DNA of 63,966 bases, the filler included, from Folioceros fuciformis (Eukaryota): the NCBI GenBank assembly GCA_049999805.1. It is 23 parts of 23 records of this genome, joined end to end, with 100 filler letters (N's around TTAATTAATTAA, not from the genome) between each part and the next. Parts side by side here need not be neighbours in the genome. Positions count along the whole stretch, not along the records: positions 28,810 to 33,867 come from JBNGIO010006604.1; 22 more parts are not named here. One strand, 5' to 3'. The number at the start of each line of letters is the position of its first letter. Position 1 is the first letter of the stretch. Below the pieces are notes generated by a model. The model searched no databases. It was not told where the DNA came from and was given only the letters and a program-made list of their open reading frames with translations. The translations under genes and the position numbers were made by a program. Shown in pieces: positions 1 to 52,689 of this stretch.

Positions 1-210
1 ACAACACTTAGGATAATGTAGATTATCCCATATTGAACTCGTAGTTATCTACCACCTAAGTGTTATCAGGATATACCAGGATATTGCACCCTCGAGACTA
101 AGGCTTACCTTATCGAGGGTTGCCTCGCCTGAAGGCTATATATATAGCATCCTATGCACCATAAGGAATGTACTATGGGGTCCATCTAAGCTAGTTGTTC
201 TATTTCAACA

Positions 211-223
211 TGGTATCAGAGCC
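211..223 (+). promoter_or_regulatory. Primer binding site (tRNA-iMet) of Copia element
   Basis: TGGTATCAGAGCC directly after the LTR-terminal CA. Confidence 0.92.
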
Positions 224-5699: not shown

Positions 5700-5953
5700 N
5701 NNNNNNNNNNNNNNNNNNNNNNNNNNNNNNNNNNNNNNNNNNNNNNNNNNNNNNNNNNNNNNNNNNNNNNNNNNNNNNNNNNNNNNNNNNNNNNNNNNNA
5801 TATAGAGCTCGATAACTCAACAAAGGAGACTTTGGGTATAAATACCCAAGTCTTATTCACACGCTAAGCTGGTACACTCGCATTCTAACAAAAAAAAAAT
5901 CACAACCTGTGCATTCTGTGCTTCAAAATGGGAGTCCCGAAAGTGTTTTTCTT

Positions 5954-6170
5954 CTACATACTCTCCTTTTCATTTGTTGGCGTCCTCGCCAACCTACACA
6001 TAATATTCACTCCCCAACCGTTGACTCTGGTTGGTTGTGACTGTCCGTCCATCTGTTGCAGCTGAATGGAGCCATTGTCAAAAAATTTAACTACCTTATA
6101 TGGTCCCATCCACCTCAGATGCAACTTGTTAGAAATCAAGCTCTAACTGAATTGTTATTAAGAGCATACA
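5954..6170 (-). pseudogene. Ty3/Gypsy integrase C-terminal (GPY/F) fragment
   Basis: KLHLRWMGPYKVVKFFDNGSIQL...RVNG resembles the KL..RW.GPY...VNG tail of Athila/Tat-type integrases. Confidence 0.7.
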
Positions 6171-6270
6171 NNNNNNNNNNNNNNNNNNNNNNNNNNNNNN
6201 NNNNNNNNNNNNNNNNNNNNNNNNNNNNNNNNNNNNNNNNNNNNNNNNNNNNNNNNNNNNNNNNNNNNNN

Positions 6271-9200
6271 ACAACACTTAGGATAATGTAGATTATCCCA
6301 TATTGAACTCGTAGTTATCTACCACCTAAGTGTTATCAGGATATACCAGGATATTGCACCCTCGAGACTAAGGCTTACCTTATCGAGGGTTGCCTCGCCT
6401 GAAGGCTATATATATAGCATCCTATGCACCATAAGGAATGTACTATGGGGTCCATCTAAGCTAGTTGTTCTATTTCAACATGGTATCAGAGCCAGAGAGA
6501 GCATCGACGGCCATGGTGGCTATGGCGGGGGTTTGAGGCTATGGCCATGAGTGTAAAGGTGGCTGGCAACACAAGCCATTGAGAGGCGTAGAAGACGCAG
6601 CAGCGTAGGTGGCGTAGGAAGCTGCAATAGGTGCCACAGGCTCAAGAGCGCGCAAGAGGCGCAAGAGGGAGAGAGACTCAGGAGGAACAGCAACTACTGG
6701 AGGCAACCAGGCCGTGGAAGCCACAGTAGGCCCAGGATTTGCAAGGAGGAAGGCCTGAACTTGGCAAACAGTGTTTTGTTTTTTAAAAGCTTGAGCAAAG
6801 GCTGTTTTTGCTTAGCGAAGGGTCAGCTGCACATTCAGGAATTGCTGAGATCTGATTGAGGCTTGTGGAGTGCTGGAGCTCTACAGCAGTGCAGGGAGTT
6901 GCACTCAAGATTGTCAAAAACATCTATTGGAAGACGCATGAAAGTGTTTTGACAATCTATCCACAAGGGACTTGGTGGCACAGCAAGCAAGAGAAGGCAA
7001 CTGACCTGAGGTGCAGGACAAGTGTTGGTGCGTAAAGGAGCCTGAATCATGGCTAATGTGCAGGGATCAGACAATATCTCTCAGGATGTGGGAGAGAAGT
7101 TGGATAATAAGAATTTTGCTATGTGGAAGTTCAGGATGAAGAACTTCTTGGTAGGTAGAGGCTATTGAGACCTCTGCACATGTGATGAGAGTGAACCGGA
7201 GATGGATCGTACTCCATCACAGGAGCAAAAGATTGCTCACAAGCATTGGATTGAGAGAGCATGTAAACTGTTACACTGGCTCTCCTTAAGTATTTCAGAT
7301 GCTATGGTCATATTGATCACGGGATGTGAGTCTCCGAAGGATGCGTGGGACATACTCATGAGGAACTATGGAAATGTCACACATGCTAGGAAAATCCAGT
7401 TGAAGCAATAGTTCAACAACTTATCACGAGGTAGCAGATCCATACTCGTGTATACAATAGAGGTGAAGACCATAGCTGATCAGCTTGCTACAATCGGTGC
7501 AAGTGTGACGGAAGATTACATGGTTGCAATTACTCTGAACGGACTTGGCAAGGAATACAAGTCCTTTGACACATCAATCTCTATGAGAGGTGAGTCCCCA
7601 AGTTGGGATGAATTGGTTGCTTTGTTGCTGCATGAGGAAGTTAAGCTTGGTCTGAACACAGGTTTAGGTATGTCTCAAGGGAGAGACACTGTTTCGTTTT
7701 CTAACCAGCGTGGGAGAGGCCACAAAGGTCGTGGTTCATTCCGAGGACGGGGTGCTGCTCGGAACACGCAAAATCAACAAGACAATTGGCCTGGAGGAAA
7801 TGCGCAAGGCCAGAGAGGATCTGGAAGTTTTAGAGGCGCAGGTAGAGCCACAAGAGGAAGAGATGGTTCTTTTCAATCTCATGACCATTCCAATCGAGAC
7901 AAGGAGTGTTACTACTATGGAAAGGTTGGTCATATTGCTAAGGACTGCTATAAGCAGCAAGCAGACATGAGAGGAAAAGGAAGGCAGCATGGGAACTATG
8001 CCTCTTCTAGTAATGCTGGAAATGACCAGGATAGGTTGTTTGCCATGCAACATCTCTCTGAACAGGATGGGCAGAATGATGAGAGATGGTACATTGATTC
8101 AGGAGCATCAAACCACATGACTCCACATGGCGAGTGGTTTAACAAGATGGATGCAGGTCCCCATGGTCATGTGTGTACAGGAGATGACACACAACATGAC
8201 ATAAACCACAGAGGAATTGTTCCTCTTAGGATGCCGAATGGTCAGCAAAATAGTCTGCAAGATGTGTTGCATGTTCCAACCATTACTAAGAACCTGTTGT
8301 CTATTGGACAGATGGCTGAACAAAATCTGCAGGTTTGATTCAATAAAGATGGATGCGTTATTGAAGAATATGACAGAGGGCGCAAACTAATTGCTAAAGG
8401 TAGTAGGAATGGACGGATGTTCACTCTGGATGCATCCATTCCAGAGCTAAATGCAGTAATGTTTACAAATGATGTAGGTGCCATACGTGATGTTGAAATA
8501 TGGCATAAGAGGATTGGGCATGTGAACATAAAGAAGCTGAAATCTATGCAACAAAAAAGCGTGGTGGAAGGATTGCCCAAGTTCAAGCATGTTGATCCTG
8601 GTCATGTGTGTTCTGCATGTCAATTGGATAATAGTCAAGGTTTTCATTTGTGCGACACGTCCAGAACAGCTCAAGACCTTTGCGATTGATACACTCTGAT
8701 GCATGGGGTCCTTCACAGAATGCATCGTTTGGAGGAGCCCACTACTGTGTCTCCTTCTTTGATGATTTCAGCAGGTACACGTGGCTGTACATACTGAAGC
8801 ATAAGGATGAAGTGTTCGAGTCTTTCAAGGACTTCAAAAAGCATGCTGAAAATGAATTCAGCTGCTCCATCTCTTGTCTAAGATCAGATGGAGGGGGAGA
8901 ATGTCTCAAATGAGTTTGACAGGTATCTTGCAGATCATGGTATACGAAGACAGCTGACTTGCATATACACACCACAGCAGAATGATGTTGCAAACAGGAA
9001 GAACAGGGTAGTCATGGAAATAGCAAGGGCAGTTGAATGAGAAGTGCTTACCTAATGATTATTGGGCAGAAACATTGATGATAGCAGTGTATGTAATGAA
9101 TCAAACTCCTACGACAGGAATTCATGATGCTACACAAATTGAGAAACTGTATGGCTATAAGCCGGATATTAGGCACTTGAAAGTGTTTGGGTGCATTACA

Positions 9201-11463
9201 TATGTGCATGTACCTGATGAGAAGCGTAGGAAGCTTGATCCTAAAGTACTGAAGAGTGTTTTTATGGGGTATGCACGAAATAGGAAGGTATATAAGTGTT
9301 ATGTGCCATCCACACATGAGATCCTGATAAGCAGGGATGTGGTATTTGATGAGTTAGCCTCCTGGTATAGCAACTCAGTTGCACTACCCTTTGACGCACC
9401 CACAGGGGAGACTACTGTTAAGAGTACTCCAGCACAGAGTGAGAATGTGACCAATGGTGGATCACCAACGGTGAATCCATGGTCTGGAAGACTGCGGAAT
9501 GGTAAACCTAAGACCACTGACCTGGACATGTTAGTGAGGGGGAGAGTAGAAAGCAGCAAAACTGGAAATGAGGGATATGAATCCTCAAGTAGTGAGAGCA
9601 TTGACAGTGAGTTTGGCATTCCGTCTGTGGAAACGCCAGGTGCTTAAGAGCAATGATATGCAAGGCAGGTTCAAACTGAACCAAGACCAAGGAGATCTGA
9701 GAGGGTTAGGAAACCCATTGACAGGTACACCTATATGAGCTACAATGCGCAACATTATGCTTATAAGACAAGGGTCACAGCTTGTAAGGAGCCAACCAAG
9801 TTTGCTGAGGCAGTGACAGATGATAAGTGGTGTCAAGCCATGGATGAAGAATACTCAGCATTAGTTGAGACGGAATGTGGGATTTGGTTCAATTGCCTGA
9901 TGGCAAAGTTCCTATTGGTTCTAAGTGGGTGTACAAGCTGAAGTTCAAGTCAGATGGAACGCTGGAGCGTTACAAGGCCATGTTGGTTGCAAAGGGATAT
10001 GCACAACAGTATAGTCTTGATTATGAGGAAACCTTTAGTCTAGTAGCCAAGATGACAACTGTAAGGACAGTCATAGCATTAGCAGTAGCTAAAGGATGGA
10101 AGTTATGGCAAATGGATGTCAAGAATGCTTTCTTGAATGGTGAGTTGCAGGAGGAAGTGTACGTGGAACAGCCTGAAGGCTATGTTCATCCTAAGTTTCC
10201 AACGTACGTATGCAAACTGAAGAAGGCATTGTATGGACTCAAACAGGCACCTAAAGCATGGAATGCTCGTATCACAACCTATTTGAAGGAGCGAAGGTTT
10301 GTGATTGGAGACGTAGATCACAGTCTGTTTGTAAAATAGACCAAGGTAGGACAAGTGTGTCTTGTCGTTTATGTTGACGACCTGATCATCATAGGAGATG
10401 ATGCAGATGGTATTGCAGATGTGAAGGCGAATCTGCAAAAAGAGTTCAAGGTGAAGGATCTTGGTGAACTCATATACTTCTTAGGAATTGAGGTTGTGTC
10501 TACACCTCAAGGAATCTAGCTATTGCAAAAACAATATGCTAAGGATATGATGCAGAAGTATGGCATTGCAGATTGTAAAGCGATGGATACACCATTAGAG
10601 CAGAACGTCAAGCTACAAATGGATGTAGGAACTGAGCTGGAAAATGTGACCATGTATCGATAGATGGTTGGAAGTTTGATCTACTTGACTATCACACGTC
10701 CTGACTTAAGTTATGCAGTAGGACTGATTAGTCAATTTATGCAGAACCCAAGGAAACTGCACTTGGATGCAGTTAGAAGAGTCATGAGATATGTGAAAGG
10801 AACTACTGAGTTTGGATTGCTCTATGAGCATAGGAAGCATCTTGAACTAACAGGATATACACATGCTGATTAGGCTGGTTGTGCGTATGATAGAAGATCA
10901 ACCAATGGATATGCATTCAGTCGGGGAAGTAGTATGATCAGCTGGCAAAGCAAGAAACAACCGACAATTGCTTTGTCAAGCACAAAAGCATAGTATCGAG
11001 GAGCTGCAATGGCAGCCTATGAAGCATTGTGGAGGCAAAACCCCGGGCATTGATTGCCAATGGGTTCCACCTTTAGTGGCCACACTTATCCCACTGTCGT
11101 TGAAACATTCAGCTTCGTTCCCACGAAGGAGCAATGGGGTTCCTTGCTGCTGTGGATGGAGAGTCGGACTTGATCGACTCGATGATGGATTCGAGGGCTC
11201 CCCTCCAGCTCCGATCAGGCGTAGGACAGGCCGCGCTGTCCGGCGGTCAGCTGCACCTCTCTCGGTGCCCACAAAGGCATGTCAGGTTGTCTCAAGCTCC
11301 GTGTCCTTACAGACTCTTGACTGTCTGCCCACAAAGCTCCCGTGAGATTTCCTGTCAATTCCTTCCCTGCTGCCAAGCAAGGGCTAGCACACTTTCTTGC
11401 AGCTGCTGAGGCTATTGCAGCTATTGCCTCCACTTGTCAGCCCTTCCACAGAGCTCTGGGGAT
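6271..11463 (+). repeat. Apparently exact duplicate of 1-5193 (offset 6270)
   Basis: Identical ORF track, identical stops and frameshifts; the copy starts immediately after an N gap. Confidence 0.95.
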
Positions 11464-18691: not shown

Positions 18692-18791
18692 NNNNNNNNN
18701 NNNNNNNNNNNNNNNNNNNNNNNNNNNNNNNNNNNTTAATTAATTAANNNNNNNNNNNNNNNNNNNNNNNNNNNNNNNNNNNNNNNNNNNN

Positions 18792-19898
18792 GCCGCCTTG
18801 CTCGAGAGGGGAACGGTGACGGTGATGCCTCTTCGGGACCTCCGCAAAGCCACCTCCAACTTCTCGGACTCAGCCCAGATCGGAACCGGCGGCTTCGGCA
18901 CAGTCTACGGTGGCAACCTCGCCGATGGCACCCCAATGGCCATCAAGAAGGGCAAGCGTGAGGGCTCCCCGGAGTACGAGCACCAGTTTCTCAATGAGGT
19001 CAGGATTCTGTCGGGAGTCAGTCACAGGCCCTTGGTGAAGCTGTTGGGCTGTACCATGGAGAACAAGATTGCTCTCCTCGTCTTCGAGTTTGTTCCCAAC
19101 GGCACATTGAAGGAACATCTGCAACGGTCCAGACAAGGGTTCTCTCCCCCCCTCACTTGGAGCCAACGCCTTCTCATAGCGCAGCAGACTGTCGATGCCT
19201 TAGCTTATCTTCATTCCGCTGCTGATCCTCCCATTATCCACCGGGACATCAAGTCTTCCAACATTCTGCTGGACGACGACCTGAATGGTAAGGTGGCAGA
19301 TTTCGGCATATCCAAGCTGGTTCCCACCAGCTCAGCTACCCACGTTCCCACAGCGGCAATTGAAGGCACCATGGGCTACATTGATCCAGAGTATTATTTC
19401 ACGGTACAGCTGGCTCCCAGGAGCGATGTTTACAGCTTCGGCGTCGTGCTACTGGAACTCCTCACGTCAAAGCCTGCCATTGATTTTGGGAGGGGCTATG
19501 AAGTAAGCACCTTGGTGGTGCTGGCACAGTCTGCCATGGAGAGGTGGGAGTGGCAAGAACTCATGGACCCTGTGTTGGCGGACACGCACAGTTCAGCGGA
19601 TGGGGGGCCATCGATAGCCAGCGTGGCCGCTTTGGCTGTGAGGTGCTTGGCCGCAAGATCCCGAGATCGTCCCCAAATGAAGGAGGTTCGAAACGAGTTG
19701 CAAACCCTCTGGCTTCACTGGGATTCCAACGCCTCGAGCCGCTGTCAATCGGATCACGCCCGCCATTCGGCGCAGCCACAGACTTCCGGGATTGATGGAC
19801 ATACTTCACGTGACCGTAGTTCCCACTCCTCTTTGTGGAATAGCTCCAGCACGTATCAGTACATTGGAACTGAGATGCCAAATGTGATTCACCTCTGA
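18792..19898 (+). CDS. RLK/Pelle kinase domain (WAK-like), 5'-partial, open frame
   Basis: GTGGFGTVY, AIKK, HRDIKSSNILLD, DFG, GTMGYIDPEY, SDVYSFGVVLLEL. Confidence 0.93.
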   Translation, partial: AALLERGTVTVMPLRDLRKATSNFSDSAQIGTGGFGTVYGGNLADGTPMAIKKGKREGSPEYEHQFLNEVRILSGVSHRPLVKLLGCTMENKIALLVFEFVPNGTLKEHLQRSRQGFSPPLTWSQRLLIAQQTVDALAYLHSAADPPIIHRDIKSSNILLDDDLNGKVADFGISKLVPTSSATHVPTAAIEGTMGYIDPEYYFTVQLAPRSDVYSFGVVLLELLTSKPAIDFGRGYEVSTLVVLAQSAMERWEWQELMDPVLADTHSSADGGPSIASVAALAVRCLAARSRDRPQMKEVRNELQTLWLHWDSNASSRCQSDHARHSAQPQTSGIDGHTSRDRSSHSSLWNSSSTYQYIGTEMPNVIHL

Positions 19899-20927
19899 TT
19901 CCAACACGCTGGAAGCAAGGTGCTTTTGACGCATGATGGATGGACTGATGAGCTTCATGAACATTAGCCTCTATCGTGCAGACTGTACAGAATGTGCTCG
20001 AATATGAACAGGACCGTGTGCACAAAACGTGTTCGTCCACTCCCCTGCGTGGGAAGGCTTGAGATGCCGCAAAATCTTAGAGGTATGTTAGCCTCAGTGG
20101 CTATGGAAATCCTTCACTTGCGATGCTGGCTGAGTGGTGGCAACGGAAGTCTCTCATGTCTCATCCTGCCAGCAACCCTTCTACCACAATGGCTCATGCT
20201 TACAAGGTCCTCATGTTTTGTTCGTTTTGATTGTTGTAGCAGGTATGGCTAGAGCCAAGCCAATGATTGTCAGTTCAAACAGCAAGTTTGTGTGAGAGGC
20301 GTTGAGGGCTCAGCTCAATGGCGTGCATCTTTCACTGAGGGCTCAGCTCNNNNNNNNNNNNNNNNNNNNNNNNNNNNNNNNNNNNNNNNNNNNTTAATTA
20401 ATTAANNNNNNNNNNNNNNNNNNNNNNNNNNNNNNNNNNNNNNNNNNNNCAGATTTGGTGGACAGATGCAGGCGTCAGGGTGTGAGGACCTTGGGATACC
20501 TGTCTGTGAGTGAGAGGTGTCGGGACTCGCAACCTCGGGGTCCGCAGGTCCACCGGGTCCGTCCGCATTAAGGCCGTACCGCACATTGATTTACGCAACC
20601 AGCGGGCTGGTTACGTTAATGAAAAGATTATGTCCCATGACAGCCACCTGACAGGCCTCGATCGTCACGCGAGCACTGTCCTGCGTTCCAGCCCACGACT
20701 TGAACTTGAACCATGTGGTGCCGGGCCTGCTTGCCTGCGTGGTGACGGTGAGAAAGGGTCATGCAGTTCTTCCACCTTGAAGCCAAGGTTGTGGAGTTGG
20801 GTAGTCGAGTTTTCAGTCCCGGGGGTGTCTGAATGTAAGAGGTGCGTGAGAGAGCGGGTGGCATCACTCTTCCTTTGCATTTGTAGCTGGTTGCGAGCCA
20901 CAGGAGAAGACAAGTTGTTGCTTGACA

Positions 20928-22010
20928 ATGTGTGGATTTGCATGCAGGATGAAGGCCTTTGCAACATCAATGCTGGTCGGGGTAGGGCGGCTTATGGCTG
21001 TGGACGGCAGGTTTGGCGGGCCCCGGGGTGGTGCGCATGCAGGGTCTGGCCTTGGCTTGTGGATACGCGTCACACTCATGATGACATGCAGTTTGCTGCT
21101 GACAGTGTGCTGCTTTGGAAGCAACGTCGGTGCCGAGCTCTCCCCCGATGGACAGGCAATGTTGAATTTCACGACCGAATACGCGGGTAGGCTGGGGAGG
21201 TGCGAGCCCGACTTGGCAAGCTGGAAAGCTAGCGACCTTACGCCGTGCGGTTGGATTCGTGTGATTTGCACTCCCAATTCCGCTGTGGCGGGCCTGAATT
21301 TGTCCGATTGCATTCTTCCTGGTCTAATTCAATTTAACCAGTTGAGCGGGTTGAGAAGCCTTCGAGGGTTGAAATTGGCCTCCAACCCCGGTATGGTGAT
21401 TGGCCGTTCCTCGCTCACATCGTTGACAATGCTGGACATGTCCGGAAGTTGGTGCTTTTCGAGTGACCGAGACGGTGACTTCTTCGGAGCTACAAACCTC
21501 CGAACTCTAGATGTGGGCGGAGGGTGCGTACAGGCACGTCTAGCAGGAATCAAGGTTCCCCTTCGGAGCTGGAATCGGCCGCGGGAGCTGGAGCAATTGT
21601 CTCTTGCTGACAGCTTCCTGACGGGAGGCTTCCCTGAGGAATTCACAACCCTCACCCAACTGATGACCCTGGATGTGTCTCATAACTTCCTCGACGGAAG
21701 CATTCCCAATTTGGAAGGGCTTACACGCCTCACCCGCCTCTCTCTCACCAGCAACAATTTTATCGGGGAGGTGCCCGCTGCCCCGACTCTGGGGTACCTG
21801 GATGCCGCCCTCAACAATTTCACAACCTTCCCCGATGCCTTATTCCAGATGCATCCTGCTCTTCAGTGGGTGACCCTCTCTCGCAACTAACTTGGAGGAC
21901 AAGTATCAGATTTCGCAGGCCTCGACGTTTCCGGCCTTCATACGTTGGACTTGTCATGGAACCATCTGCACGGCCGTATCCCGTCCTTCGTGCCGGCTCT
22001 GGCGTACCTG
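20928..22010 (+). pseudogene. LRR receptor-like kinase ectodomain, copy B (signal peptide, LRRNT, LRRs; in-frame stop)
   Basis: Hydrophobic leader, ELSPDGQAML..LASW..TPCGW..VIC cap and LRRs; TAA at 21888-21890 with LRRs continuing in frame after it. Confidence 0.85.
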
Positions 22011-28991: not shown

Positions 28992-31900
28992 TCAATGACC
29001 TGCAGTATAACGTGAGATCATCCATGATCCTTGTTGCACATCTTGAAGTGAAACCCAGACAGGATCTGCAAAATCACGAAGTCTTACTAGATACTCTAGA
29101 ACATTACCACGGACAGAAGGCACTTCTCTTTCTGCTAGAAATTCAACAATCTCTTGTAGACTATGGTTATATTGAACCAGGATAACATAGTCTTTTCTGT
29201 TCATGTCTTCATTCTCTTTCGAAATCACAAACGGTTTCAGCAAAGAGACATGAAACACATCATCAGAGAAGATCCAATTAGGCAGTTGTAGTTTGTAAGC
29301 CACATTCCCAATGCGCTTCAGAACTGTAAAAGGACCTCCATACTTAGGCCTTAACTTTGGGGACAATCCTTGAGGTATTGGGAAGTGTTTCAACTTTACC
29401 CAAACCTTATCACCCACTTGAAATTCTGCCTCTTTCTTGTGCCTATCAGCAAACTTCTTTTGCCTGTCTTGAGCTTTGGCCAAAATCCTCTTAGCAATTT
29501 CATGCCTGGCGCTTAACTGCTCAATAAATTCATGTAGTTCTCTTGCTGCTATCTCAAACACGTCAGCATTCAACATGGAAACTGCGTCCATTGCTTCGTT
29601 ACCTGTNNNNNNNNNNNNNNNNNNNNNNNNNNNNNNNNNNNNNNNNNNNNNNNNNNNNNNNNNNNNNNNNNNNNNNNNNNNNNNNNNNNNNNNNNNNNNN
29701 NNNNNNCGTAAGTATTCCTCTTGGATTCTGTTTACTCTTTCTGTAGATCCATCTGTATCAGGGTGATATGCTGTACTTAGACATAGTTGCACTCCCAAGC
29801 TCTTCATAAGCTGTTGCCAAATTTCCGCTGTGAATCTGGGATCTCTATCACTCACAATTTGCATAGGCAATCCATGTAACACATAGATATGCTTCTTAAA
29901 CAATTGAGCAACTTCTAAAGCCTTCACTTGCTTCTTCGTGGGGATAAAGTGTGCTTGCTTGCTGAACCTATCAACAACTGTCATGATAGCTGTGTATCCA
30001 TTACTAGGTGGCAATGGCATAACAAAATCCATTGATATACTCTTCCAAGGCCCACTTGGAATAGGCAGGGGTTGCAACAAACCTCGTGGATTTGTCTGCT
30101 CTACTTTATCCTGTTGACAGTCTACACAAGACTTCACATACTCTACAGTATGTTTGTACATTCCAGGCCAGTAAAACAGCTTCTTCAACTTCTCATAAGT
30201 TGTGTCAATTCCCCGATGACCAGCACTTAGCACATCGTGACATTCTGCAAGCAACTTTTTTCTCAACTCTTGAGAATCAGGAATCACAATCCTGTTTTGC
30301 TTGAACATTAACAAGCCATTTCTAAGCTTAAACTTAGACCCCGGTTGCTCTATCTCGTTGATCCAATCTTGCACTAATGGATCATGCAAATAAGCCTCCT
30401 TAATCTGCATGTGAGTGTCCCTTGGCTCAATCACCATCTGTGTTGTAGCTAGCTTAGGATTCTTCAGCTTAAAAACAGACATTAAACTCAACTCCTGCTT
30501 GCGACTAAGAGCATCTGCCACGAGATTTTCCTTCCCTGGCTTGTACTTAATCTCTACATCATACATCGCTAGGAAATCTTGCCATCTAGCTTGTCTAGCA
30601 TTTAGTCGCAACTGATTAGAAAAGAAGCTTGTACTTACATTATTTGTGTACAGCACAAAAGATCTTCCAAGAAGATAGTGTCTCCAAATCTTGAGACAAT
30701 TGATGACGGCTGTCATCTCCTTCTCATATGTGGGGTATTTCCTCTCATGTTCATGCAACTTTCTTGGTTCGTAAGCCACTGGCCTACCTTCTTGCATAAG
30801 CACTCCTCCAATAGCTGTATCTGACGCATCAGTATACACTTTTATATATTTCTTTGGATCATAGATTGCTAGTACTGGAGTAGTGCTGAGTTTCAACTTG
30901 AGAAACTCAAATGCCCTTTGACATTCTTCATCCCACTTCCATGTCTTCACCTTCTTCAAGAGATCAGTTAATGGGGCAGCAATTTTGGCAAACATTGGTA
31001 CAAATCTTTTGTACACGCTAGCCAATCCTAAAAATATACGCACTTCATGCACATTGCTTGGCGGCAGCCAACTCTGTATGGCTTTTACCTTATCAGGATC
31101 CATCCTGATTCCATCCGCAGAGACATTGAATCCAAGGAAGTCTATTTCTTCCTTAACAAAGTCACACTTTGTTATAGCTAAGAACAAAGAATTTGCCCTT
31201 AACCTTTCCAACACTTTCCTCAAGTGTTGGACATGCTCCTCTAAGGTAGAACTGAATATCAAAATGTTATCCAAATAGATCACAACACACTCATCCAACA
31301 GATCTCTGAATATACTATTCATGAGAGTCTGAAATGTGGCTGGTGCATTAGTGAGTCCAAATGGCATGACTAGAAATTCAAAAGATCCATACCTTGTCCT
31401 ACAAGTAGTTTTGTATTCATGTCCTTCTGCGATGCGAATCTGGTAATAACCAGCCATCAAATCCAGTCTGGTAAAATACTTAGCACATTTCAACCTGTCA
31501 AACATATCATCCATCCTTGGCAAAGGATAGGAATTTTTGACTGTTATCTGGTTGAGTGCTCTGTAATCCAAGCATAACCTTAATCCTCCATTCTTCTTTC
31601 GCGTAAACAATACTAGCGCACCAAATGTGGATTTTGAGACTCTAACATAGCCCTTGGCTAACAAGTTAGACATTTGTCTCTTCAATTCTTGAAACTCATC
31701 TAGCGACAATCTATACGGCGCTCTTGATGGCGGTACACTTCCTGGCTTTAGATCAATTTCATGATCTACAACTCTCCGTTGAGGTAAAGGAGGTAACTCA
31801 GTAGGCATCAAGTCTTTAAACTCATCTAAGACATCCTGTATCTCCTTTGGAATCTTTGGTTGCTTCTGAGATTCCATCTCAATACCATCTTCTAGTCCTT

Positions 31901-32360
31901 GCAACACCAACAAATACAGTTCCTCTCCATTTTTAACACAACGCTTGAGCTCTTTGTTAGAGATGACTTCATCAATCTTGTGCCCAAGCTGATGCTCAAG
32001 GACTGCACAACTCACTTTGTGCTTTTCATCTCCTATGATCTGTATGGTGCGTGAGTCCACGTCTACACATACCTTATTGGCCTTCATCCATTCTAAGCCC
32101 AAGATGATTTCATGATCACCTATATCTACAACTGTGAAGCTTGCTTGTCCTGTCCAATTGCCTATCTACAAAGGAACTTTTTCTAGCTGTCCTAAGAACT
32201 GCAGCTTTCCTTTTGCTTGTTTCACTGTACATGGCTCTGAAATACTAGCCCATGTCAAACCAAGCTTACTTGCTCTGCCAGGAGAAATGAAATTATGTGT
32301 TGCTGCTAGATCAAGCAACATCTTCGCTTCTTCACGATTCACACATCCTTCTATATACAT
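28992..32360 (-). pseudogene. Gypsy pol (protease, RT, RNase H, integrase, chromodomain-like)
   Basis: LLDLAATHNF, ILGLEWM, LCLDYRALN, VMPFGLTNAPATFQ, YLDNI (D>N), TDASD, ADALSR, H-H-C-C, SMDFV, SDRD, ERVN, KYGGPF, EYLVRL; TAG at 32166. Confidence 0.92.
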
Positions 32361-32447
32361 GAGCTCTCCACCTGCCCTATGAATAATGCTGTCCTCAGCA
32401 TCTTGAGAGTCACCACATGTAGCCTGTGCAACATGTGGCCAATCCCG

Positions 32448-33692
32448 TCATTTGGGATTTTCAGTTCCGGATACTTCTGTAATCCTGAGTCTTTGGGGCT
32501 GTGGGCTGTCTTGAACAACATTCAAAGTTTGTTGAGTATTGGGGCATTCATTCGCGTAATGTCCCGGCTCTCCACAAGCAAAACAAACTCCTTTCCGAGA
32601 ACCCATTGTCACTGTTCTCTGAGGTCCGCGCCCCCTGCGCACTCCTTGATTTCTCCCACGGAAGCTCGCACTGGAGTTGCCTCTTGCAACTGTACTCCTT
32701 TCATTATCCTTGGGAGTCCCTCATGCAACATTGTTGGAAGAAACCCTAGTTTGCATATACCGTCCACGGGTATTACCTCGAAATCTTCTTAAGGAGTTGG
32801 ATGTGTTGGAATGAAAGGTATCTGGGATAGCATCTGCTGCTGTTATGGCCTCTGCCAAGGTCATTGGACTATACAACTCAATTCTGTTAGCAGCCCAGTC
32901 CTTCAAACCAACTATGAAGCGATGTAGTTTGTCAACTTCACTCATTGAAGTACAATGCATAACAGCTTCACTGAATGTATTTACATATTCTCGTACAGTA
33001 CCTGTCTGCTTTATATTATCAAGCAGCTGCCGGCTCAAGCGTAAAGCATTCGCAGGTTGGAACTGCTTCTTCAAGGCCTCTTTAAAAGATGCCCAGTCTG
33101 TGATGGTGTGTGCTCGATTTCCCTGGGCTACATTAGCACAATAACTTCGCCACCACACCAAAGCATACCCTTTGAGAAAGTTGCCCACAGTTCCTAAGTA
33201 ATGCTTAGGCTCCAGGCCAGATGAAGCAAGATAGCTTTCAATAGAGTAAATCCAGGAATCAATAGCTTGTAGATCCCTTACTCCCTCATACTTATCTGGC
33301 ACGGTCAACTTCAGATTTGCCCTCGGAACTGCTTCGAAGATATGAAAAGGATCTTGATTGTCTTCCGCTTCCTCATTTTGTAGAACTATAGGCTGTGGAT
33401 CCTNNNNNNNNNNNNNNNNNNNNNNNNNNNNNNNNNNNNNNNNNNNNNNNNNNNNNNNNNNNNNNNNNNNNNNNNNNNNNNNNNNNNNNNNNNNNNNNNN
33501 NNNGTCTTCCGCTTCCTCATTTTGTAGAACTATAGGCTGTGGATCCTTCCTTGCCTTTTTCCCAGTTGCTATCAAATCTTGGAGAACTTCCGGCAATACT
33601 TCGGGGAGAATTTGTTGTAAAGCGACCATCATCTGCATCTTCCAATCTTCAGATTTGTCTCCGGATGGTCCTGCTGAGTCGGTAGGCGGCAT
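32448..33692 (-). pseudogene. Gypsy gag with CCHC zinc knuckle
   Basis: PDKYEG..W, LKGYALVWW, QTGTVREY, FIVGL, CFACGEPGHYANEC; internal TGA at 32721-32723; ends at TGA 32448-32450. Confidence 0.9.
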
Positions 33693-33780: not shown

Positions 33781-33792
33781 GCTCTGATACCA
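33781..33792 (-). promoter_or_regulatory. Primer binding site (tRNA-iMet) of Gypsy element
   Basis: TGGTATCAGAGC on the minus strand, upstream of gag. Confidence 0.9.
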
Positions 33793-37399: not shown

Positions 37400-38589
37400 C
37401 TACAGTCTGCACTCTTGCATGAACCAAGCCGGTATGATGTCGGATTCATGCGCACACAACATCTTGTGAGTCTTCCTGAGCGTACTCGCCGCCACGTCGC
37501 ATGCCTTGGCAATGATTTCGAGTGAGATGGCTTGGTCATTTGAAATCCTACACACCATGTAGATCACGGCGGCGGCGATGGACGTTGGGGAGCTCGTGGG
37601 GTTGAGTTTTTCAACGGCGCTCAAAGACTCAACCACGGCTCTTGCACTCGTCTTAGGCAGTTGGAGCTTGCAGCAAAACCGCGGTGCAAAATCCCTAGGC
37701 CGCAGAGCTTTGGACGTGCGCGCTGGATTTCCTCGCATGCACGGCTTGTCATGTGCATGCACGTCGCTCGATTCCAGGAGGCCCACCAACTTTTTGATGT
37801 CCCCCCGGACAAGAGCGTAATTGCGGGCACCCAAGAAGTTCTCGTAGATGTCTTGGGCTGACCAAGGAGCGCGTTCTTCTCGACAAGCCACGAACGTGGC
37901 AGCAGCCACGCACATGTCTTCATCGTCGCCCCCTTTTCCCAACCTCACTAGTTCCTTGTACAAGAACTTTGCGCGCACCTGCCTGTTGCTCGGAAGTGCC
38001 ATTCTTTCAGCGAGCTCTGAAATCCTATCGAAAGCGCATCTCATGGTGGTGGCATCGTGATCGGGAGCCAACGCATTCACCCTGCGCATTGTGGATGCAA
38101 TCCCCTTGTCCTTTGCGCGTGTAGTGTCAATGCAAGTGGTTAGCCCACCGTGGTCGAGCAAGCCATCCGTACTCGTGACGTGTCCCACACGCTCCTTTTC
38201 TTGGTGCTCCGTATCATTCTCAAACCTCCTATATTCCGAGGTTTCGTCGATACAACGGTCTCCCAACACCATGCCGCACTCTTTGCAAACGGTGTCTCCC
38301 GTACTGTGGTCGTCAAGGATGTCCGTCTCTTTCTTGCACTGCGGGCATACGAGGCCCGTACTCTCGGCTCTCTGCGGTGGAACAAAAAAAAAAGAAAAAA
38401 AAAAAAAAAAAGGTTTAGTTTCGACGAACTCGAATCATTTCTTGCGAAAGAGCATCGATCCAAATCCAAGGAGACGTAGGTAGGCCAATCACGTACCGGT
38501 GGGAGGCTGCCCTCGCGCTTCGCACGCAAGACCACGGCTTGGCACGTGTGCTTGGGGAGCGTCATGTGAATTCTTGGTGGAGGCCTCAT
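37400..38589 (-). CDS. Divergent TFIIB-like transcription factor (2 exons, about 354 aa)
   Basis: Exon 38589-38497, GT-AG intron, exon 38371-37400. Zinc ribbon CPQC..DHSTGDTVCKECGMVL, IDETSEYRRF, cyclin folds ACREE and SPTSIAAAVIYM. Confidence 0.9.
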
Positions 38590-42977: not shown

Positions 42978-44857
42978 TTAGAAGTGGAGTAGGGAAGACA
43001 GCACAGCCGACATGGCTAGGCAGCAGCAGAGTATTGTCCACGCGAGGTCACTGCCAGGGCCTCCTCCGACTGCATTGCTCCGAGAATTCGCAGATCTGCT
43101 GCAAACACAACCCGGTGAGGCAAAGGACTGGTCAGCAAAGAAGGAAGAAAGAAGGAACAGGCGGCGAGGGAATGGCATTCGAAGCGAAGGAGTGGAAGGG
43201 GTGTGTGGAGCAAGAGGGAGTTACCTTCCGGGGTATTTACAGCCACCATAACCTGCGGCCAAAAGAGGTATGGGGGCAGATATTAGCTTGTAACTTCGGC
43301 AAAAGGGAAGAGCATGCTCTCATGACATAACATGACAGAGAAGAGAAGAGAAGGGAAGCAAAGACAAGAGAAGAAAAGAGATGAGAAGGGAGACATGGAG
43401 GGAGGGTGGTCTTACTAGGATCCTGGTAGGTGATGACGGCTGTGCCCCCAAAGTCACAGGTGCCCGGGGCATTGTCGAACATCTGATAGTAGCTGTTGTA
43501 GGCCCAGGAGGCGTGGCTGGCAACAGTGTTGGGAAGGAAACAGTTCCCACTGGGCTGAATCTGCTTGCAGACAGAAGCAGCGATACCACAGGCATAGTCC
43601 AAACCGAACTGCAGGGCCGTGCCGCTCACACCAGACTTGGCAATGCACCAAGAGGTGGCGGATGCGTTGGGGAGGACCCCAGTTCCGGCCCAGTCCAGGG
43701 GATAGACAGCCGTCTGGTTGGGATAGTAGAGCCCCCAGTTCCTGGCAGAAGTAGGCCCAGGCACGGCATCCTCGTTGAAAAGCTCGTAGATCATGACCCC
43801 GATGTCGAGCCCGGGCTTGGTTGGTGTGCCCGTGTTGTTGAGGAGGCGGAGAAGCAGGTTCTGATTGTAGGTCTGCGCGTTGTCCACTGTGATTCCCGTC
43901 TCGGTGCTGTCCCCCACAGACGGCCAGCCCGTGGCCGCCACCACCACGGGGAGGTCGGAGACGTTGGCGGCCGCCAAGGCGTAGTAGAAAGCATCCAACA
44001 CTGCGTCGAACTCGTTGTCGTAGTGCAGCCCGGTGTTGGGGTCGGTGATGCCCACATTGGGGCGGAAGAGGGCGTAGTCGAGCGAGATGACACTGCTGTG
44101 CTGGTAGTCGTTGCTGGGGTAGAGATTGATCATGAGGTAGGAACCGGTGGAGTCGAGGAAGCTGAGGAGGGGAAGCACGAAGTTGGGCAGCAGGGACTGA
44201 TTGAAGCGCGCGTCGTAGGGCGGGAAGGAAGTGCCCAACACCGACACTGAGTGGGGGGTGGAGACCTTCACCACCCCGTCCAGCTTGGCCGCCTGCAACG
44301 CGGTGTGCAGGTTGGTCATGGCCGGCACAAGGTACGGCGCCACCTGAGGCGACTGGAGCTGCGTGAGCACCTCATTCCCCACCGTGATCCCGCTGATGTT
44401 CACCGCCGGAACGTAGGCCAGCACATTGTTCTTCACCCACGCCTGCGCTGTGGAGTTGCTGACGGCGATGCCCAGAATCTCCTGGTCCTGTACCGCAATC
44501 CAGAGAAGGATGTTGGAGCCACCGAAGGCCTGGATGACGGCAGCGTCCGAGTTGAATATCCGGCAGTAGCCAATCCCCAAACCCTTGAGCAAAGCCACTG
44601 CATCTGCCGGTGTCGGCAGGTTGTCCCCCCTCGTCCCGTAATTCACACCCACGAATGCCCCTGCACCAATCCAATCCAATCCGACGCAATGCAATGCGCC
44701 GCAATGCAATCCATCAGCCTTGTCCCTGTCGGGTCACGGGCACGAAGCACAATAAGCACAATCAGGCAGCAAACAGCCCACCTGCTGGGCTGCCTGACCG
44801 CAGCACCCACAAGAGCAGCAAGGCCAAGCGCGCCCACACGCCCCGCCTCCCCACCAT
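42978..44857 (-). CDS. GPI-anchored glucan endo-1,3-beta-glucosidase-like protein (GH17 + X8)
   Basis: Signal exon 44857-44782 (MVGRRGVWARLALLLLW); main exon 44660-43416 (GVNYG, VGNEV, TGWPS, YELFNED, WCIAK..LDYAC..ASWAYNSYY); exons 43252-43225 and 43098-42978 with a hydrophobic GPI tail. Confidence 0.93.
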
Positions 44858-47850: not shown

Positions 47851-48111
47851 GAGCTGCGAGGCGCGAAGCGCCGCGTTTGCCCTCGCGACTTTTCGGCTTG
47901 TGGAGACAGCTGCCTGAGCGGCATGTCCACGTTGCCGAAGGTGTGAGAGCGAGGCCAGAAACGCCGCGCAACCATAGGTACAGAGTCGCTGTCGTTTGGC
48001 GGTGCCCCATGCCAGCGGACACCTCTAACTGAAAACCCGTTGACTCGAAGGGGAAGGAGAGTTACAGCAGTTAGCAGAGTTGGGTCAGTCATACCTTCGT
48101 CACCCCTGCGT

Positions 48112-51100
48112 ATGTCAGACAGCTCTGAGTCCCCTGACGTCGGCAGCGATTCTGGTTCACCACAACCCGGTTTTCTTGATTCCCTGGTAGACCAGCTATC
48201 AGCTCAGTTGCAGGCGCTTGTATTAGTACCCGAGATGGGCACTAATCCCACACAACCGCCTCCTCCACCTCCGCCGCCACCACCTCTTCCCTCAAATCCG
48301 GTGTGGCACCGGTCAGCACCCCTCCCCACCTTCACCTCGGACATGAAAGAAAAGGACCGCTTCAATGGCACCAAGTACCCTGTTTGGAAGGTGCGCATGC
48401 GCTCAGCACTTGAAGCCCGAGGAGTCTGGGGAGTGGTGGACCAGTCAGTTCCGGAGCCAGACCTCAACAGCAATCCTCCCCCATCGGCAATTGCTGTGGA
48501 GCGCTGGCAGTCACTCAATTCCATTGCTCTTGCTTTCTTGATAAACGGGCTTGATGAGGACCTCGTACCTACAGTGGAATTCCATACGAAAGCACACCAG
48601 GTTTGGGATCAGCTTGCAAGTACGTATCAAGTTAAAAACCTTATGTCCCTTTGTGCCGTCAGGCAGGAATTCTATACCTTGAAGATGAGAGAGGGGGAAA
48701 AGATGGCTGCACACATCACCAAATTTCGTCAGCTCCGCTCTCAGTTGCTGAGTATGGGCACGAAAATGGATGAGTTGGATGCAGCTGCTCACCTCCTCAC
48801 GACGTTGCCACCTTCTTACCAAGGCTTCATCACTACACAGAACATTCCCTATTTGACTGCCTCGGCTGGCCGTACCTCCACTTATACAGTTGACATCCTT
48901 ATCGGAGCCCTTTTTCAGGAGGAACAAGCCAGGAGTCATTCTTCAGGGAGCTCACGCTCCAAGGGAGATAAGATTCTGTCAGCTCGGCACACACCTAACA
49001 AAGGCAAGAGCAAATTTCAGAAACCTGATTCAAGCCCTGCTAACCCTCCCAAAAGGACAGGGACTTGTAACTGGTGTGGAATTGCTGGGCACTGGGCCCG
49101 TGAGTGTAAAAAGAAGAGGGCTGGCGAACCGCAGCGAACATCCAAGACTTCGGCTAGCGTTGCTAAGGAGAAATCCAGTGATACTAAGAACGTGGTTAAG
49201 ATACTCACAGTTTGCTTGACTAGTTCTTGTTCGGACACAGAAAGCTGGTACCTGGATTCTGGTGCCACGGCTCACATTTGTCGAAACAAGAATCACTTCA
49301 CCTCTCTGACCCCTTGTTGTGAGAATGACAAGGTGTTCCTTGGAGATGAACAGCTCGATAGCAGTTTGCAAGTCAAAGGACAAGGCAAGGTTACTTTCCG
49401 ATTGAAGGACGGTTCAGATCTTACTCTTGAACGCGTTCTGTACGTACCAGCCATGGCGAAGAATCTACTGTCCATGAGTCAGCTCCTGAAGCTGCGGACG
49501 TTTGAGATGCAAGCCACCGGTGATACGTGCACCTTCTACAGGAAGGTTGCCCCAGACACTTGCTTTTTCAAGGGTTTCCTTGATAATGATCTGTATTGCC
49601 TTGATCTGCTGTCTGTAAGGAATGCCACCGTGCATAGCACTGGATTAGCTAACCTGGACACCAAGCAGCTGGCTATGTTATGGCACGCAAGACTCGGACA
49701 TCCCAACAAACAGAAGTTGCTGGACATGTCCGTCAAACAATGTTTTAGGGAACCCCTTCCCCGTTGTTTCAAGGACTTACCGTCCTGTGAGGCGTGCATA
49801 ATAGCCAAGCAAAAGGAACACCCCTTTCCTTCCACTCCAGCATACAGAGCTACCTCTGTCTTAGGCTTGGTCCATGCGGACATCTCTGGAAGGATACAGG
49901 TGCCATCTATAGGTGGTTCCAATTACTACCTTACCTTAACGGACGACTACAGCCGTTACACTTGGACATTCCCTATGCAGAGGAAGAACGATGTCTTCGA
50001 CATCTTCAAAGAATGGCTTCCTGCAGTACAACGCCAAACGGGTTTGCTGTTAAAGTACCTGCGTACAGATAATGGCACCGAGTTTGTTAATGATGCCTTT
50101 GATGAATACCTAGCTGCGGAGGGGATTCAGCGGCAACTTACCGTTCCTTATACACCCCAGCAAAATGGGGTTTCTAAGAGGAAGAATCAGTCCTTGTTGG
50201 CCATGACCCGGAGCATGTTGCTCTGGTCCGGCCTCCCTCAAGCGTATTGGGCAGAAGCCATTTGTGCAGCAACATACATTCTGAACAGAATTCTTACGAG
50301 CTCTGTCCCGAATCAAACACCCTATGAGGTCTTCCATAAGAGGAAACCAAGTCTGCTGCACCTGAGAGTTTTTGGTTCCCGAGCATATGCGTTTATTCCT
50401 GCGAAGAAACGCCAGAAGTTAGACCCGAGAGCTCAAGCCCTTGTTTTTGTAGGGTACAGTGAGCAGTCTAAGGCTTATCGACTGTATGACCCGACTCTCA
50501 GGAAGATGTCACTCGCACGGAGTGTCACCTTCATTGAGCCCCATTCTCCATTGCTCACCCATGCTCCGCAGACAGAGGGAGCTTCGGACATACCTGAGGA
50601 GACAGAGGGAGGATCTACGTACCCTGTGAATGAGGGACAGGTCACTTATCAGATGTATCCTCAGGATGCCGAACCTCAGGATGCCGAACCCCAGGATGCC
50701 GAACTCCAGGATGCTGAACCCTTGGACGCTGTCTTGCCGACACCCGATTTGGTCGCACCTCTTCCCGCTGAACCAGACCCTCAGGATGACCCGGACCTCA
50801 TCCCTTTTGACGACCCAGGTGCTCCTGTCCAAGTTGCTGCGGACTTACCAGATGCTGCTCTTTTCGACGAGCCGGATCCAGCACCCATTATGGATGAGCA
50901 TCTACCGGAGGTCATTGAAACTCCACCAATCCCTCCTGCAGCAGTTGCCCGCGACACCGAGGAAGTGGTACCTCGCCGTTCTGACCGCCACCGACCACCA
51001 CCTGATCAATGGGCTGAACCGCGTTACCAATCTATTGACTTCCGCCATCGGGCAGCCCCAGCTACAGCACACACTGCTCCGTCGGCCATCCCGGATGAGC

Positions 51101-52689
51101 CACGCACTTTGGCCGAGGCTTACAACGGACCTGACAGTAAGCAGTGGCGTGCGGCCGTCGAAGACGAGTACCAGTCTCTGATTAAAAACAAGACCTGGAC
51201 TCTTGTGGACTTGCCACCCGGCCGCAAACCCATTTCATGTAAATGGGTCTTCAAACACAAACTGAATGCTGAGGGCGAGATCGCCCGGTACAAGGCCCGT
51301 CTCGTGGCCCGTGGTTTTACCCAGGTGGAGGGTCTGGACTATCAGGAGACATTCTCCCCTGTCGTCCGGTCCCAATCCATACGCATGCTGTTGGCTCTGG
51401 CTGCAGAATTCGACCTTGACTTATGGCAGATGGATGTCTGCACAGCATACCTTTATGGGTCTCTGGATGAAGAACTGTACATGCAACAGCCGGAAGGTTA
51501 CGTTAGTAAGCAGCACCCCAAGCAGGTTCTTAAACTTTTAAAATGCATCTACGGACTGAAGCAATCTGGTAGGGTTTGGTATTTTACCATCCACGTCTAT
51601 CTGTTGGACTTGTCTTTTGTTCAAAGTGCCGCAGATACCAATGTTTACCGGCTGACTAGGGGCACAGCTTTCGTCATAGTTGCCTTGTATGTCGATGATG
51701 TCATTCTGGTCACAAACAGTAAAACTCTGTTAGATGAAGTCAAGCAAATGCTCAGCGACAGGTTCGAAATGAAAGACATTGGTGATCTAAAGTTCTGTTT
51801 AGGGATACAGATCCTCCGAGTTCGTGAGGAGGGTCTTCTGGTTATCCACCAGCATAAATACATTCGGGAAATCCTGCATAAGTTCAAGATGGATCAAGCC
51901 CGTCCAGCCACCACTCCTTCAGCTGTGGGCATCAAGTTAACAACTGATCAGTGCCCTACCACTAAGGAAGCTAAGCAGGATATGGCGGATGTACCTTACA
52001 GGCATGCTGTTGGCAGTCTTTTGTTTGTGGCAAACTGGACTCGCCCAGACATACAGTATGCAGTGAGCACCGCTTCTCAGTTTATGGAAAACCCTGGACG
52101 CCCCCACTGGTCAGCCGTAAAAAGAATCTTCCGTTACCTGCAGGGCACACACACATATGGGTTATTCTATAAACGAAGTGGCACAGGCACATTCCATCTA
52201 TCTGGCTTCACGGATGCTGACTGGGGTTCTGACAGTGACGGACGTCGCAGTTTATCTATTTACTGTTTCTTGCTGGCCAATGCGTCTGTAAGTTGGAGCT
52301 GCAAGAAACAAACTACAATAGCACTGTCCTCATCGGAGGCTGAATACAAATCTCTTACAGAAGCCTCCAAGGAGGCAGAGTGGGCTCGACAGTTTCTGGC
52401 CGACCTTGGTCATCCTCAACGTGCTCCCACTCCTATTCTCTGTGACAACACTGGTGCTCTTGACCTTGTGGCAAATCCCCGATATCATGCTCGTACAAAG
52501 CATATCGAAATCCAACACCACTATATTCGTGATGTATCTGCACGAGGCGTGGTGAGAGTGGGTTATGTTGATACCGAGCTGAATACTGCCGACATTTTTA
52601 CTAAGCCACTACCTAAGCTCAAGCACTATACACACATGACGGGACTTGGCCTGCAGGATTACTCTGCTCATTTTGATTCAGTGCCATGA
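48112..52689 (+). CDS. Copia gag-pol polyprotein (about 1525 aa)
   Basis: FNGTKYPVWKVRM, CNWCGIAGHWAREC, WYLDSGAT, WHARLGH/CEAC, RTDNGTEF, KLDPR, YVDD, DADWG, SSEAEY, ADIFTK; no stops. Confidence 0.95.
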   Translation: MSDSSESPDVGSDSGSPQPGFLDSLVDQLSAQLQALVLVPEMGTNPTQPPPPPPPPPPLPSNPVWHRSAPLPTFTSDMKEKDRFNGTKYPVWKVRMRSALEARGVWGVVDQSVPEPDLNSNPPPSAIAVERWQSLNSIALAFLINGLDEDLVPTVEFHTKAHQVWDQLASTYQVKNLMSLCAVRQEFYTLKMREGEKMAAHITKFRQLRSQLLSMGTKMDELDAAAHLLTTLPPSYQGFITTQNIPYLTASAGRTSTYTVDILIGALFQEEQARSHSSGSSRSKGDKILSARHTPNKGKSKFQKPDSSPANPPKRTGTCNWCGIAGHWARECKKKRAGEPQRTSKTSASVAKEKSSDTKNVVKILTVCLTSSCSDTESWYLDSGATAHICRNKNHFTSLTPCCENDKVFLGDEQLDSSLQVKGQGKVTFRLKDGSDLTLERVLYVPAMAKNLLSMSQLLKLRTFEMQATGDTCTFYRKVAPDTCFFKGFLDNDLYCLDLLSVRNATVHSTGLANLDTKQLAMLWHARLGHPNKQKLLDMSVKQCFREPLPRCFKDLPSCEACIIAKQKEHPFPSTPAYRATSVLGLVHADISGRIQVPSIGGSNYYLTLTDDYSRYTWTFPMQRKNDVFDIFKEWLPAVQRQTGLLLKYLRTDNGTEFVNDAFDEYLAAEGIQRQLTVPYTPQQNGVSKRKNQSLLAMTRSMLLWSGLPQAYWAEAICAATYILNRILTSSVPNQTPYEVFHKRKPSLLHLRVFGSRAYAFIPAKKRQKLDPRAQALVFVGYSEQSKAYRLYDPTLRKMSLARSVTFIEPHSPLLTHAPQTEGASDIPEETEGGSTYPVNEGQVTYQMYPQDAEPQDAEPQDAELQDAEPLDAVLPTPDLVAPLPAEPDPQDDPDLIPFDDPGAPVQVAADLPDAALFDEPDPAPIMDEHLPEVIETPPIPPAAVARDTEEVVPRRSDRHRPPPDQWAEPRYQSIDFRHRAAPATAHTAPSAIPDEPRTLAEAYNGPDSKQWRAAVEDEYQSLIKNKTWTLVDLPPGRKPISCKWVFKHKLNAEGEIARYKARLVARGFTQVEGLDYQETFSPVVRSQSIRMLLALAAEFDLDLWQMDVCTAYLYGSLDEELYMQQPEGYVSKQHPKQVLKLLKCIYGLKQSGRVWYFTIHVYLLDLSFVQSAADTNVYRLTRGTAFVIVALYVDDVILVTNSKTLLDEVKQMLSDRFEMKDIGDLKFCLGIQILRVREEGLLVIHQHKYIREILHKFKMDQARPATTPSAVGIKLTTDQCPTTKEAKQDMADVPYRHAVGSLLFVANWTRPDIQYAVSTASQFMENPGRPHWSAVKRIFRYLQGTHTYGLFYKRSGTGTFHLSGFTDADWGSDSDGRRSLSIYCFLLANASVSWSCKKQTTIALSSSEAEYKSLTEASKEAEWARQFLADLGHPQRAPTPILCDNTGALDLVANPRYHARTKHIEIQHHYIRDVSARGVVRVGYVDTELNTADIFTKPLPKLKHYTHMTGLGLQDYSAHFDSVP
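50662..50721 (+). repeat. 15-bp coding tandem repeat x4 (QDAEP)
   Basis: CAGGATGCCGAACCT units in the integrase-RT linker. Confidence 0.9.

Follow-up and report, generated by a model that had tools for sequence, protein, structure and literature searches.

A conserved in-frame UGA and downstream hairpin between gag and pol of two Ty3/Gypsy families in Folioceros fuciformis: a candidate readthrough signal

A Ty3/Gypsy element whose gag and pol are separated by a stop codon

The window analyzed here is a stretch of 63,966 nucleotides from the genome of Folioceros fuciformis (GCA_049999805.1), made up of many short contigs with runs of N around a TTAATTAATTAA linker between them. The part derived from JBNGIO010006604.1 harbors a Ty3/Gypsy LTR retrotransposon, assigned by its Pfam domain order gag-protease-RT-RNase H-integrase (Table 1). 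Retrotrans_gag and zf-CCHC are found upstream of an in-frame TGA and an aspartyl protease (with matches below the curated cut-off), RVT_1, RNase H, integrase, and SH3 downstream of it. The primer-binding site TGGTATCAGAGC is presumably of the tRNA-Met type. Both ends of the element coincide with record ends, and the high depth there would fit repeated LTR sequence. A search of the C-terminus of this copy and of one copy of a second family, described below, gave no Pfam match to a chromodomain at E ≤ 0.1. In its place, both families carry a conserved 79-amino-acid tail after the integrase SH3 domain (29231-28995, minus strand), which has no Pfam match.

Table 1. Coordinates of the features of the element, counted along the whole window
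Feature	Position	Strand	Basis or remark
Primer-binding site TGGTATCAGAGC	33781..33792	-	seen in the sequence
gag ORF, starting at its first ATG and running through its final sense codon	32451..33692	-	Pfam Retrotrans_gag E 8e-17, Ty3_capsid E 2e-11
CCHC zinc knuckle	32544..32585	-	Pfam zf-CCHC E 9e-8
In-frame UGA between gag and pol	32448..32450	-	copy counts in two families
8-nt spacer, starting CGG (CGC in family 2)	32440..32447	-	counts of codon +1
Stem 5' arm: +9 G, then CCACATGT	32431..32439	-	identical in family 2
Loop of 10 nt (family 2: 7 nt)	32421..32430	-	varies more than the arms
Stem 3' arm: ACATGTGG, then U pairing with the +9 G	32412..32420	-	U kept in both families
5'-splice-donor-like GGTGAGT (GGTGACT in this copy)	32408..32414	-	copy counts
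3'-splice-acceptor-like pyrimidine run and AG	32377..32386	-	17 nt upstream of the in-frame AUG
pol ATG, the first in frame (codon +30, within LMY)	32358..32360	-	three out-of-frame ATGs before it
pol, sharing the frame of gag, with protease, RT, RNase H, integrase, and SH3	28992..32447	-	Pfam

A first-pass annotation of this DNA had noticed that gag ends with ...CCC AAA at the TGA (32450-32448) and that pol follows in the same frame (CGG GAT TGG CCA CAT), which our analysis bears out. It had also placed this stop just past the zinc knuckle; in fact, 31 codons separate it from the last Cys of the knuckle. Its caveat that other premature stops are present in this copy was justified. Two were found, one in gag (32723-32721) and one in the protease region (32168-32166) behind the protease Asp (32312-32310), and the RT active-site motif is altered as well. 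This copy is therefore dead. The gag and pol reading frames each contain an assembly gap of 100 N, and a short duplication flanks one of the two gaps.

Conservation of the stop codon and of the hairpin in two families

To follow the junction through the copies of this element (family 1), we used a DNA search of the genome that returned 39 matches; 30 were fetched, and 27 of these, this copy included, cover the junction. All 27 carry TGA. By comparison, the gag stop at 32723-32721 is a sense codon in all 21 other copies covering it, and the protease stop at 32168-32166 is a sense codon in 22 of 23, the remaining copy sharing the stop. The junction TGA is thus kept family-wide while the other two stops are near-private, and the majority of sense codons that the first-pass annotation named as evidence against its proposal was not observed.

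A protein search (89 matches) revealed a second family in the same genome, whose amino acid identity to the first is about 50% across knuckle and protease and reaches 85-87% in RT. Forty more stretches were fetched and 28 loci counted. Among the 27 that make up the junction count, 23 have TGA, three TAA, and one a deletion; outside this count stands one very decayed copy (32% identity, many stops) with TGT at the junction. For both families together, the 55 junction-covering copies comprise 50 with TGA, three with TAA, one deletion, and one sense codon. Pol shares the frame of gag in both families, and frameshifting was rejected on this ground.

Codon +1 of family 1 is CGG in 21/27 copies, TGG in 5/27 (hence a +4 T in these five), and CAA in one. 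In family 2, it is CGC in 21/27 and CGN in 22/27. Exceptions to UGA-CGN are mostly C-to-T changes at a CpG. The usual junction of family 2 reads TCT AGG TGA CGC CAG GGG, followed by both stem arms around a 7-nt loop. The two families differ in the codons upstream of the stop, in spacer sequence, and in the loop, which is one codon shorter in family 2, and what they have in common is the spacer length, the CG, the G at +9, the two stem arms, and the U that closes the stem. A search for the pattern of stop plus arms found 39 places in the genome, compared with none for a reversed control, and all of them belong to the two families by spacer and loop sequence. In one of three sets of contigs whose RNA status is a guess, a 256-nt contig spans 32355-32610 with two differing letters, none of them in the stop or stem, and no joint is listed at the junction; since this contig may be DNA or stem from the sample used for the assembly, it was counted neither for nor against. 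The support comes from only two independent families of one genome. The stop and its accompanying signal are real, conserved, and very probably functional.

The first-pass annotation had described UGA-CGG followed, 9 nt downstream, by a perfect 8-bp stem formed by CCACATGT (32438-32431) and ACATGTGG (32420-32413). Both are present, and an additional G:U pair (32439:32412) extends the stem to 9 bp and shortens the spacer to 8 nt. RNA folding, which had been proposed as a check, gave -31.6 kcal/mol for a 91-nt region (z = -3.0), a value equaled by 3 of 200 shuffled sequences. Pairing probabilities predicted for the stem exceed 0.8 in both families. Among 194 windows per family, a junction window ranks second-lowest by folding energy in both families, and by z-score it stands out in family 1 only. 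A perfect 8-bp stem begins 8-10 nt after 10 of the 4,945 stop-like triplets on both strands of the window, the junction included, and the 4,540 nt of the element alone contain seven such matches. The hairpin by itself is therefore not rare, and it is notable for its place rather than its strength.

Its conservation was assessed letter by letter. All 16 arm nucleotides are identical between the families, compared with about 60% nucleotide identity in the flanking linker codons, and the loop differs in length by exactly 3 nt, so that the frame is kept. Minor-letter rates are 0.014 and 0.014 for the two arms of family 1 (loop 0.041, gag 0.054) and 0.024 and 0.019 for those of family 2 (loop 0.093, gag 0.081), so that, with the exception of the family-1 TGA, nothing in the junction varies less than the arms. 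No arm variant is common to three or more copies. The +9 G is present in 26/27 copies of family 1 and 23/26 of family 2, and the U closing the 3' arm in 27/27 and 26/26, respectively. An A at position -1 occurs in only 15/27 and 4/26. Stem pairs are broken in 4/27 copies of family 1 and 6/27 of family 2, as decay would give.

Six of six synonymous codons within the stem are identical between the families (P about 0.013). Since runs of six to seven identical codons also occur elsewhere (codons 395-396, 356, 147, and -37), this conservation is a weak statistic. The modeled hairpin is likely to form, although no compensatory double changes were seen among 54 copies. The identical arms could also represent a primary-sequence element; the palindrome ACATGT occurs in each arm and may be a site of dimerisation. 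Two further structures were dismissed. A 6-bp hairpin enclosing the stop (32459-32441, in the centroid structure) cannot form in family 2, and a second hairpin predicted after the stem in both families differs between them in sequence and register and was not counted. Rfam returned no match. The 3' arm also contains, in both families, an out-of-frame AUG-UGG-UGA mini-ORF (32418-32410, minus strand).

Selection on pol and possible ways past the stop

Pol behind the stop has been maintained as a protein. Over pol codons 200-450, real copies of the two families show 85% amino acid identity, with identities of 0.87, 0.91, and 0.55 at the three codon positions, and only 42% of four-fold synonymous codons are identical. 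The protease region gives 0.63, 0.76, and 0.42. By these patterns, pol is under purifying selection in both families, and a working pol was kept behind the stop in both lineages until silent sites were nearly saturated. The stop must therefore be bypassed somehow. An inherited defect, with a non-autonomous gag-only lineage amplified by the Pol of another element, would agree with the decay of most copies and with the atypical protease motif of both families. This explanation is scarcely tenable: it is largely refuted by the strong purifying selection on RT and protease between stop-bearing families, and some copies still have long open frames before as well as after the TGA.

The protease motif itself lacks its usual Gly (32312-32301, minus strand). 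It reads D-L-A in 17 of 17 reads of family 1 and D-S-A, D-S-T, or D-S-V in most reads of family 2, instead of D-S/T-G. As the region is conserved as protein, either the enzyme is atypical or its role has changed.

Retroelements need far more Gag than Pol. Based on the sequence comparisons described above, we consider programmed UGA readthrough the best reading of the gag-pol junction, with a probability of about 0.68. The Gag:Gag-Pol ratio would then be set by readthrough in this Ty3/Gypsy lineage of two families. For most ribosomes, translation would end at the UGA and yield a Gag of roughly 370 amino acids, and a few percent would decode the stop with a near-cognate tRNA (for Trp, Cys, or Arg; these are described as UGA suppressors of plants) and continue in frame into protease-RT-RNase H-integrase. 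A leaky UGA-CG context and the 9-bp hairpin, which starts 8 nt downstream and would thus stand at the mRNA entrance of the ribosome, may favor this event. We infer all three elements of this proposal, namely readthrough as the bypass, the hairpin as its stimulator, and the efficiency. Readthrough would explain at once why the frame is kept, why the context is UGA-CG, and why the stem lies where it does.

The linker that leads from the stop to the in-frame AUG of pol bears on the alternatives. It comprises 29 codons, of which codons +14 to +29 show no codon-position pattern between the families (10/9/9 of 16), and variants shared among copies are six nonsynonymous to two synonymous in family 1 and four to five in family 2. 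Translation of the linker is therefore not well shown by its sequence. The in-frame AUG is codon +30 in family 1 and +29 in family 2, and in both it is preceded by three out-of-frame AUGs, which would hinder any alternative based on scanning. In 52 of 84 database proteins with a protease motif, this Met is an ordinary residue within the chain, which counts against reinitiation.

Termination followed by reinitiation, or internal initiation, at this AUG (32360) on the full-length RNA, aided by the hairpin, is hence extremely unlikely in our judgment. The AUG is kept in both families as this mechanism would demand; against it stand the three preceding AUGs, the structural explanation of the Met, and a frame that has been kept from stop to AUG without need.

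The main rival to readthrough is a separate pol mRNA, spliced or made from an internal promoter and translated from the AUG at 32360, for which the UGA would be an ordinary terminator. Foamy viruses make pol from a spliced mRNA. In the spliced version, an upstream donor would be joined to the acceptor-like site at 32386-32377, and the hairpin would serve otherwise, in packaging, dimerisation, or splice control. A pyrimidine-rich run with AG before a G is present at the homologous place in both families. At least 80% of copies retain the AG, and in each family the first AUG to follow is the in-frame Met; the linker, which shows no clear coding signature, also favors this rival. Nevertheless, this AG is at the same time part of a conserved Arg codon (AGG) and the Met is internal in single-ORF relatives, so that neither needs a role in splicing. 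The 60 nt upstream of the acceptor-like site contain 55% AT and 27% U (the element mean is 58% AT), unlike plant introns, which are AT/U-rich. A protease begun at this AUG would have only 16 residues before its Asp, and a separate mRNA leaves the UGA-CG context, the spacer length, and the frame kept across the loop indel unexplained.

Observations from other elements point both ways. Weak promoter activity is reported at the gag-pol junction of Tca2 (PMC2194720), and the Gag:Pol ratio of plant Copia elements is described as set by splicing (PMC5580714). By contrast, the latter account gives no conserved splicing for Gypsy elements of Arabidopsis (Oberlin et al.; PMC5580714). Taking these points together, we regard a separate pol mRNA as unlikely. 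A donor-like GGTGAGT after the stem, present in 18/27 copies of family 1 and 23/26 of family 2, is in line with splicing as well; the GGTGACT variant belongs to the subfamily closest to this copy. Lying at the foot of the stem, this motif could yield a spliced gag-only RNA or bind U1, and it might let splicing act as a further layer in the control of Gag:Pol.

Alternatively, the stop could be removed or recoded in the RNA, by a small intron or by editing, or passed in a Tca2-like manner that depends on a host factor or on sequences far away. TGAC looks like a branch point, the loop of family 1 contains CAG followed by G, and a GT overlaps the stop in family 2 and in 12/27 copies of family 1. 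Moreover, the bypass in Tca2 is itself described as unexplained (PMC2194720). An intron over the stop is nonetheless unlikely, because 15/27 family-1 copies, including those nearest to this copy, lack a GT there. In addition, the AG of the loop is lost or shifted in 5/27 copies of family 1, and GT sites conserved upstream in both families lie only within zinc-knuckle code. We therefore rate this group of explanations as very unlikely. For annotators, the case is a warning to treat the junction stop as part of the design of the element and not as decay.

Relatives, comparison with known signals, and other elements of the window

The phylogenetic position of the families was determined with a FastTree of RT sequences (70 sequences after dereplication of 228 at 80%, midpoint root). 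Both families form one clade (support 1.0), and its sister group (0.92) consists of elements of the seed plants Helianthus, Ipomoea, Nicotiana, Quillaja, Corylus, and Phoenix, several of them with PF00385. The RT thus groups with chromodomain-bearing plant elements, as that of a chromovirus would. Judged by motifs, the sister group is probably the Galadriel clade, which this lineage resembles. In the REXdb table, 74% of Galadriel elements have a single ORF (PMC6317226). The sister elements shown likewise run unbroken in a single frame from the gag side to the protease, in a sample that favors single ORFs because only proteins of 833-2,375 amino acids were searched. Among 20 loci of this genome that fall into other RT groups, the four that are clearly readable are all open from knuckle to protease; the remaining loci are decayed or were not read in the needed frame. 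In this biased sample, the sequences suggest that the stop probably arose within this lineage from a single-ORF ancestor.

Outside this genome, metagenome, viral, Gag, Pol, and representative-sequence searches yielded no close relatives. The metagenome scan kept 80 of 213 loci, none of them in the clade of the element: 33 have the knuckle one frame off pol, eight are open through, and the rest are short or decayed. None of eight candidates from viral contigs was confirmed, and three matches to the junction pattern in prokaryote genomes were taken as chance. Among 2,114 candidates of the Gag search, none reached E ≤ 1e-10, and the representative-sequence search gave only distant Gags with about 26-39% identity apart from short stretches. 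The best match of the Pol search has 45% identity over 87%. A literature search, which covered few subscription papers, found neither a description of this family nor, for any plant retrotransposon, a signal of UGA-CG and a hairpin. It is possible that REXdb already lists the family as GAG:s:PROT.

The layout of gag, stop, and pol is known already, from Tj1, Chlamyvir, and RIRE2, and no new mechanism is established here. Gao et al. 2003 is said to be the main survey of gag-pol recoding. Readthrough had been called rare among LTR retrotransposons in the first-pass annotation, and the REXdb counts do not agree with this view: a single stop between GAG and PROT (GAG:s:PROT) is listed for 80% of Chlamyvir, 12% of Athila, 10% of Tekay, and 10% of SIRE elements (PMC6317226, MOESM5). 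This is the same single gag-pol stop as found here; the table gives no signal or mechanism for it (PMC6317226). Rice RIRE2 was named a readthrough candidate in 2009, when, according to the same source, all verified plant cases were viral (PMC2754532). In those parts of the literature that could be examined, the mode of bypass at plant Gypsy gag-pol stops is assumed rather than shown.

A close match in signal is described by Firth et al. 2011 (PMC3159437) as the conserved element of replicase readthrough in Virgaviridae, xxA-stop-CGx-xxx-xxG with a stem after a spacer of 8 nt. With tobra-, peclu-, furo-, and pomoviruses and the alphavirus type II signal, our families share UGA-CGN, the +9 G, the 8-nt spacer, and a stem, and this copy fits the Virgaviridae motif letter for letter, including the -1 A. 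The viral stems are described as having 12 or more bp, spanning about 138 nt, and showing compensatory changes, whereas the stem described here has 9 bp, a loop of 7-10 nt, and no such changes. The likeness is one of convergence, not homology. The candidate signal is very short and sharply conserved, and exists in two natural versions that have the same arms and differ in loop, spacer, and upstream codon. It is conceivable, although we lean slightly against it, that a compact plant-virus-like signal (UGA-CGN, +9 G, 8-nt spacer, hairpin) evolved independently here beside single-ORF relatives. If true, plant nuclear DNA would have provided a minimal structure-stimulated readthrough cassette of less than 40 nt.

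Other retroelements resemble the families in layout. Fission-yeast Tj1, Tcry1, and Tosmo1-3 also belong to Ty3/Gypsy, and a single in-frame TGA-C, kept across families, separates their gag from pol (PMC4600332; bioRxiv 10.1101/2022.12.06.519325), and the chromovirus Tj1 is reported to need its in-frame gag stop to transpose (PMC4600332). The Tj1 group has a GAA-TGA-CT context and belongs to a self-primed fungal clade, and the accessible portions of these sources mention no downstream stem; the families studied here, in contrast, have TGA-CG, a conserved stem, a tRNA-type primer-binding site, and a plant-type lineage. In Moloney MuLV, too, Gag-Pol is produced by passing an in-frame stop, and an RNA structure begins 8 nt beyond it. 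There, the reported signal consists of UAG, a purine-rich spacer, and a pseudoknot, compared with UGA and a simple hairpin here. A MuLV-type (type III) signal does not fit the junction: the stop is UGA, the loop differs between the families in length and sequence, and it contains no conserved sequence for a second stem. Tca2 of Candida albicans likewise combines a gag-pol UGA, an 8-nt spacer, and a predicted structure (PMC2194720), but it is a Copia element with a predicted pseudoknot, in contrast to a Gypsy element with a hairpin. Its junction is reported to give only background readthrough (0.3%) in an S. cerevisiae reporter (PMC2194720), and layout alone is therefore no proof of mechanism.

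Elsewhere in the window, ordinary plant genes are found at 18744-21890 (plus strand; tandemly repeated LRR and protein-kinase pieces), 37400-38434 (minus strand; a TFIIB-like ORF), and 43237-44733 (minus strand; a GH17 and X8 glucanase). A Copia element at 47947-52689 (plus strand) has gag, protease, integrase, and RT in one open frame of 1,580 codons from stop to stop. Two further Copia-type copies at 1-11400 (plus strand) lie 6,270 nt apart, are identical over the 300 nt compared, and have the same ORF pattern; this pair is possibly an assembly duplicate.
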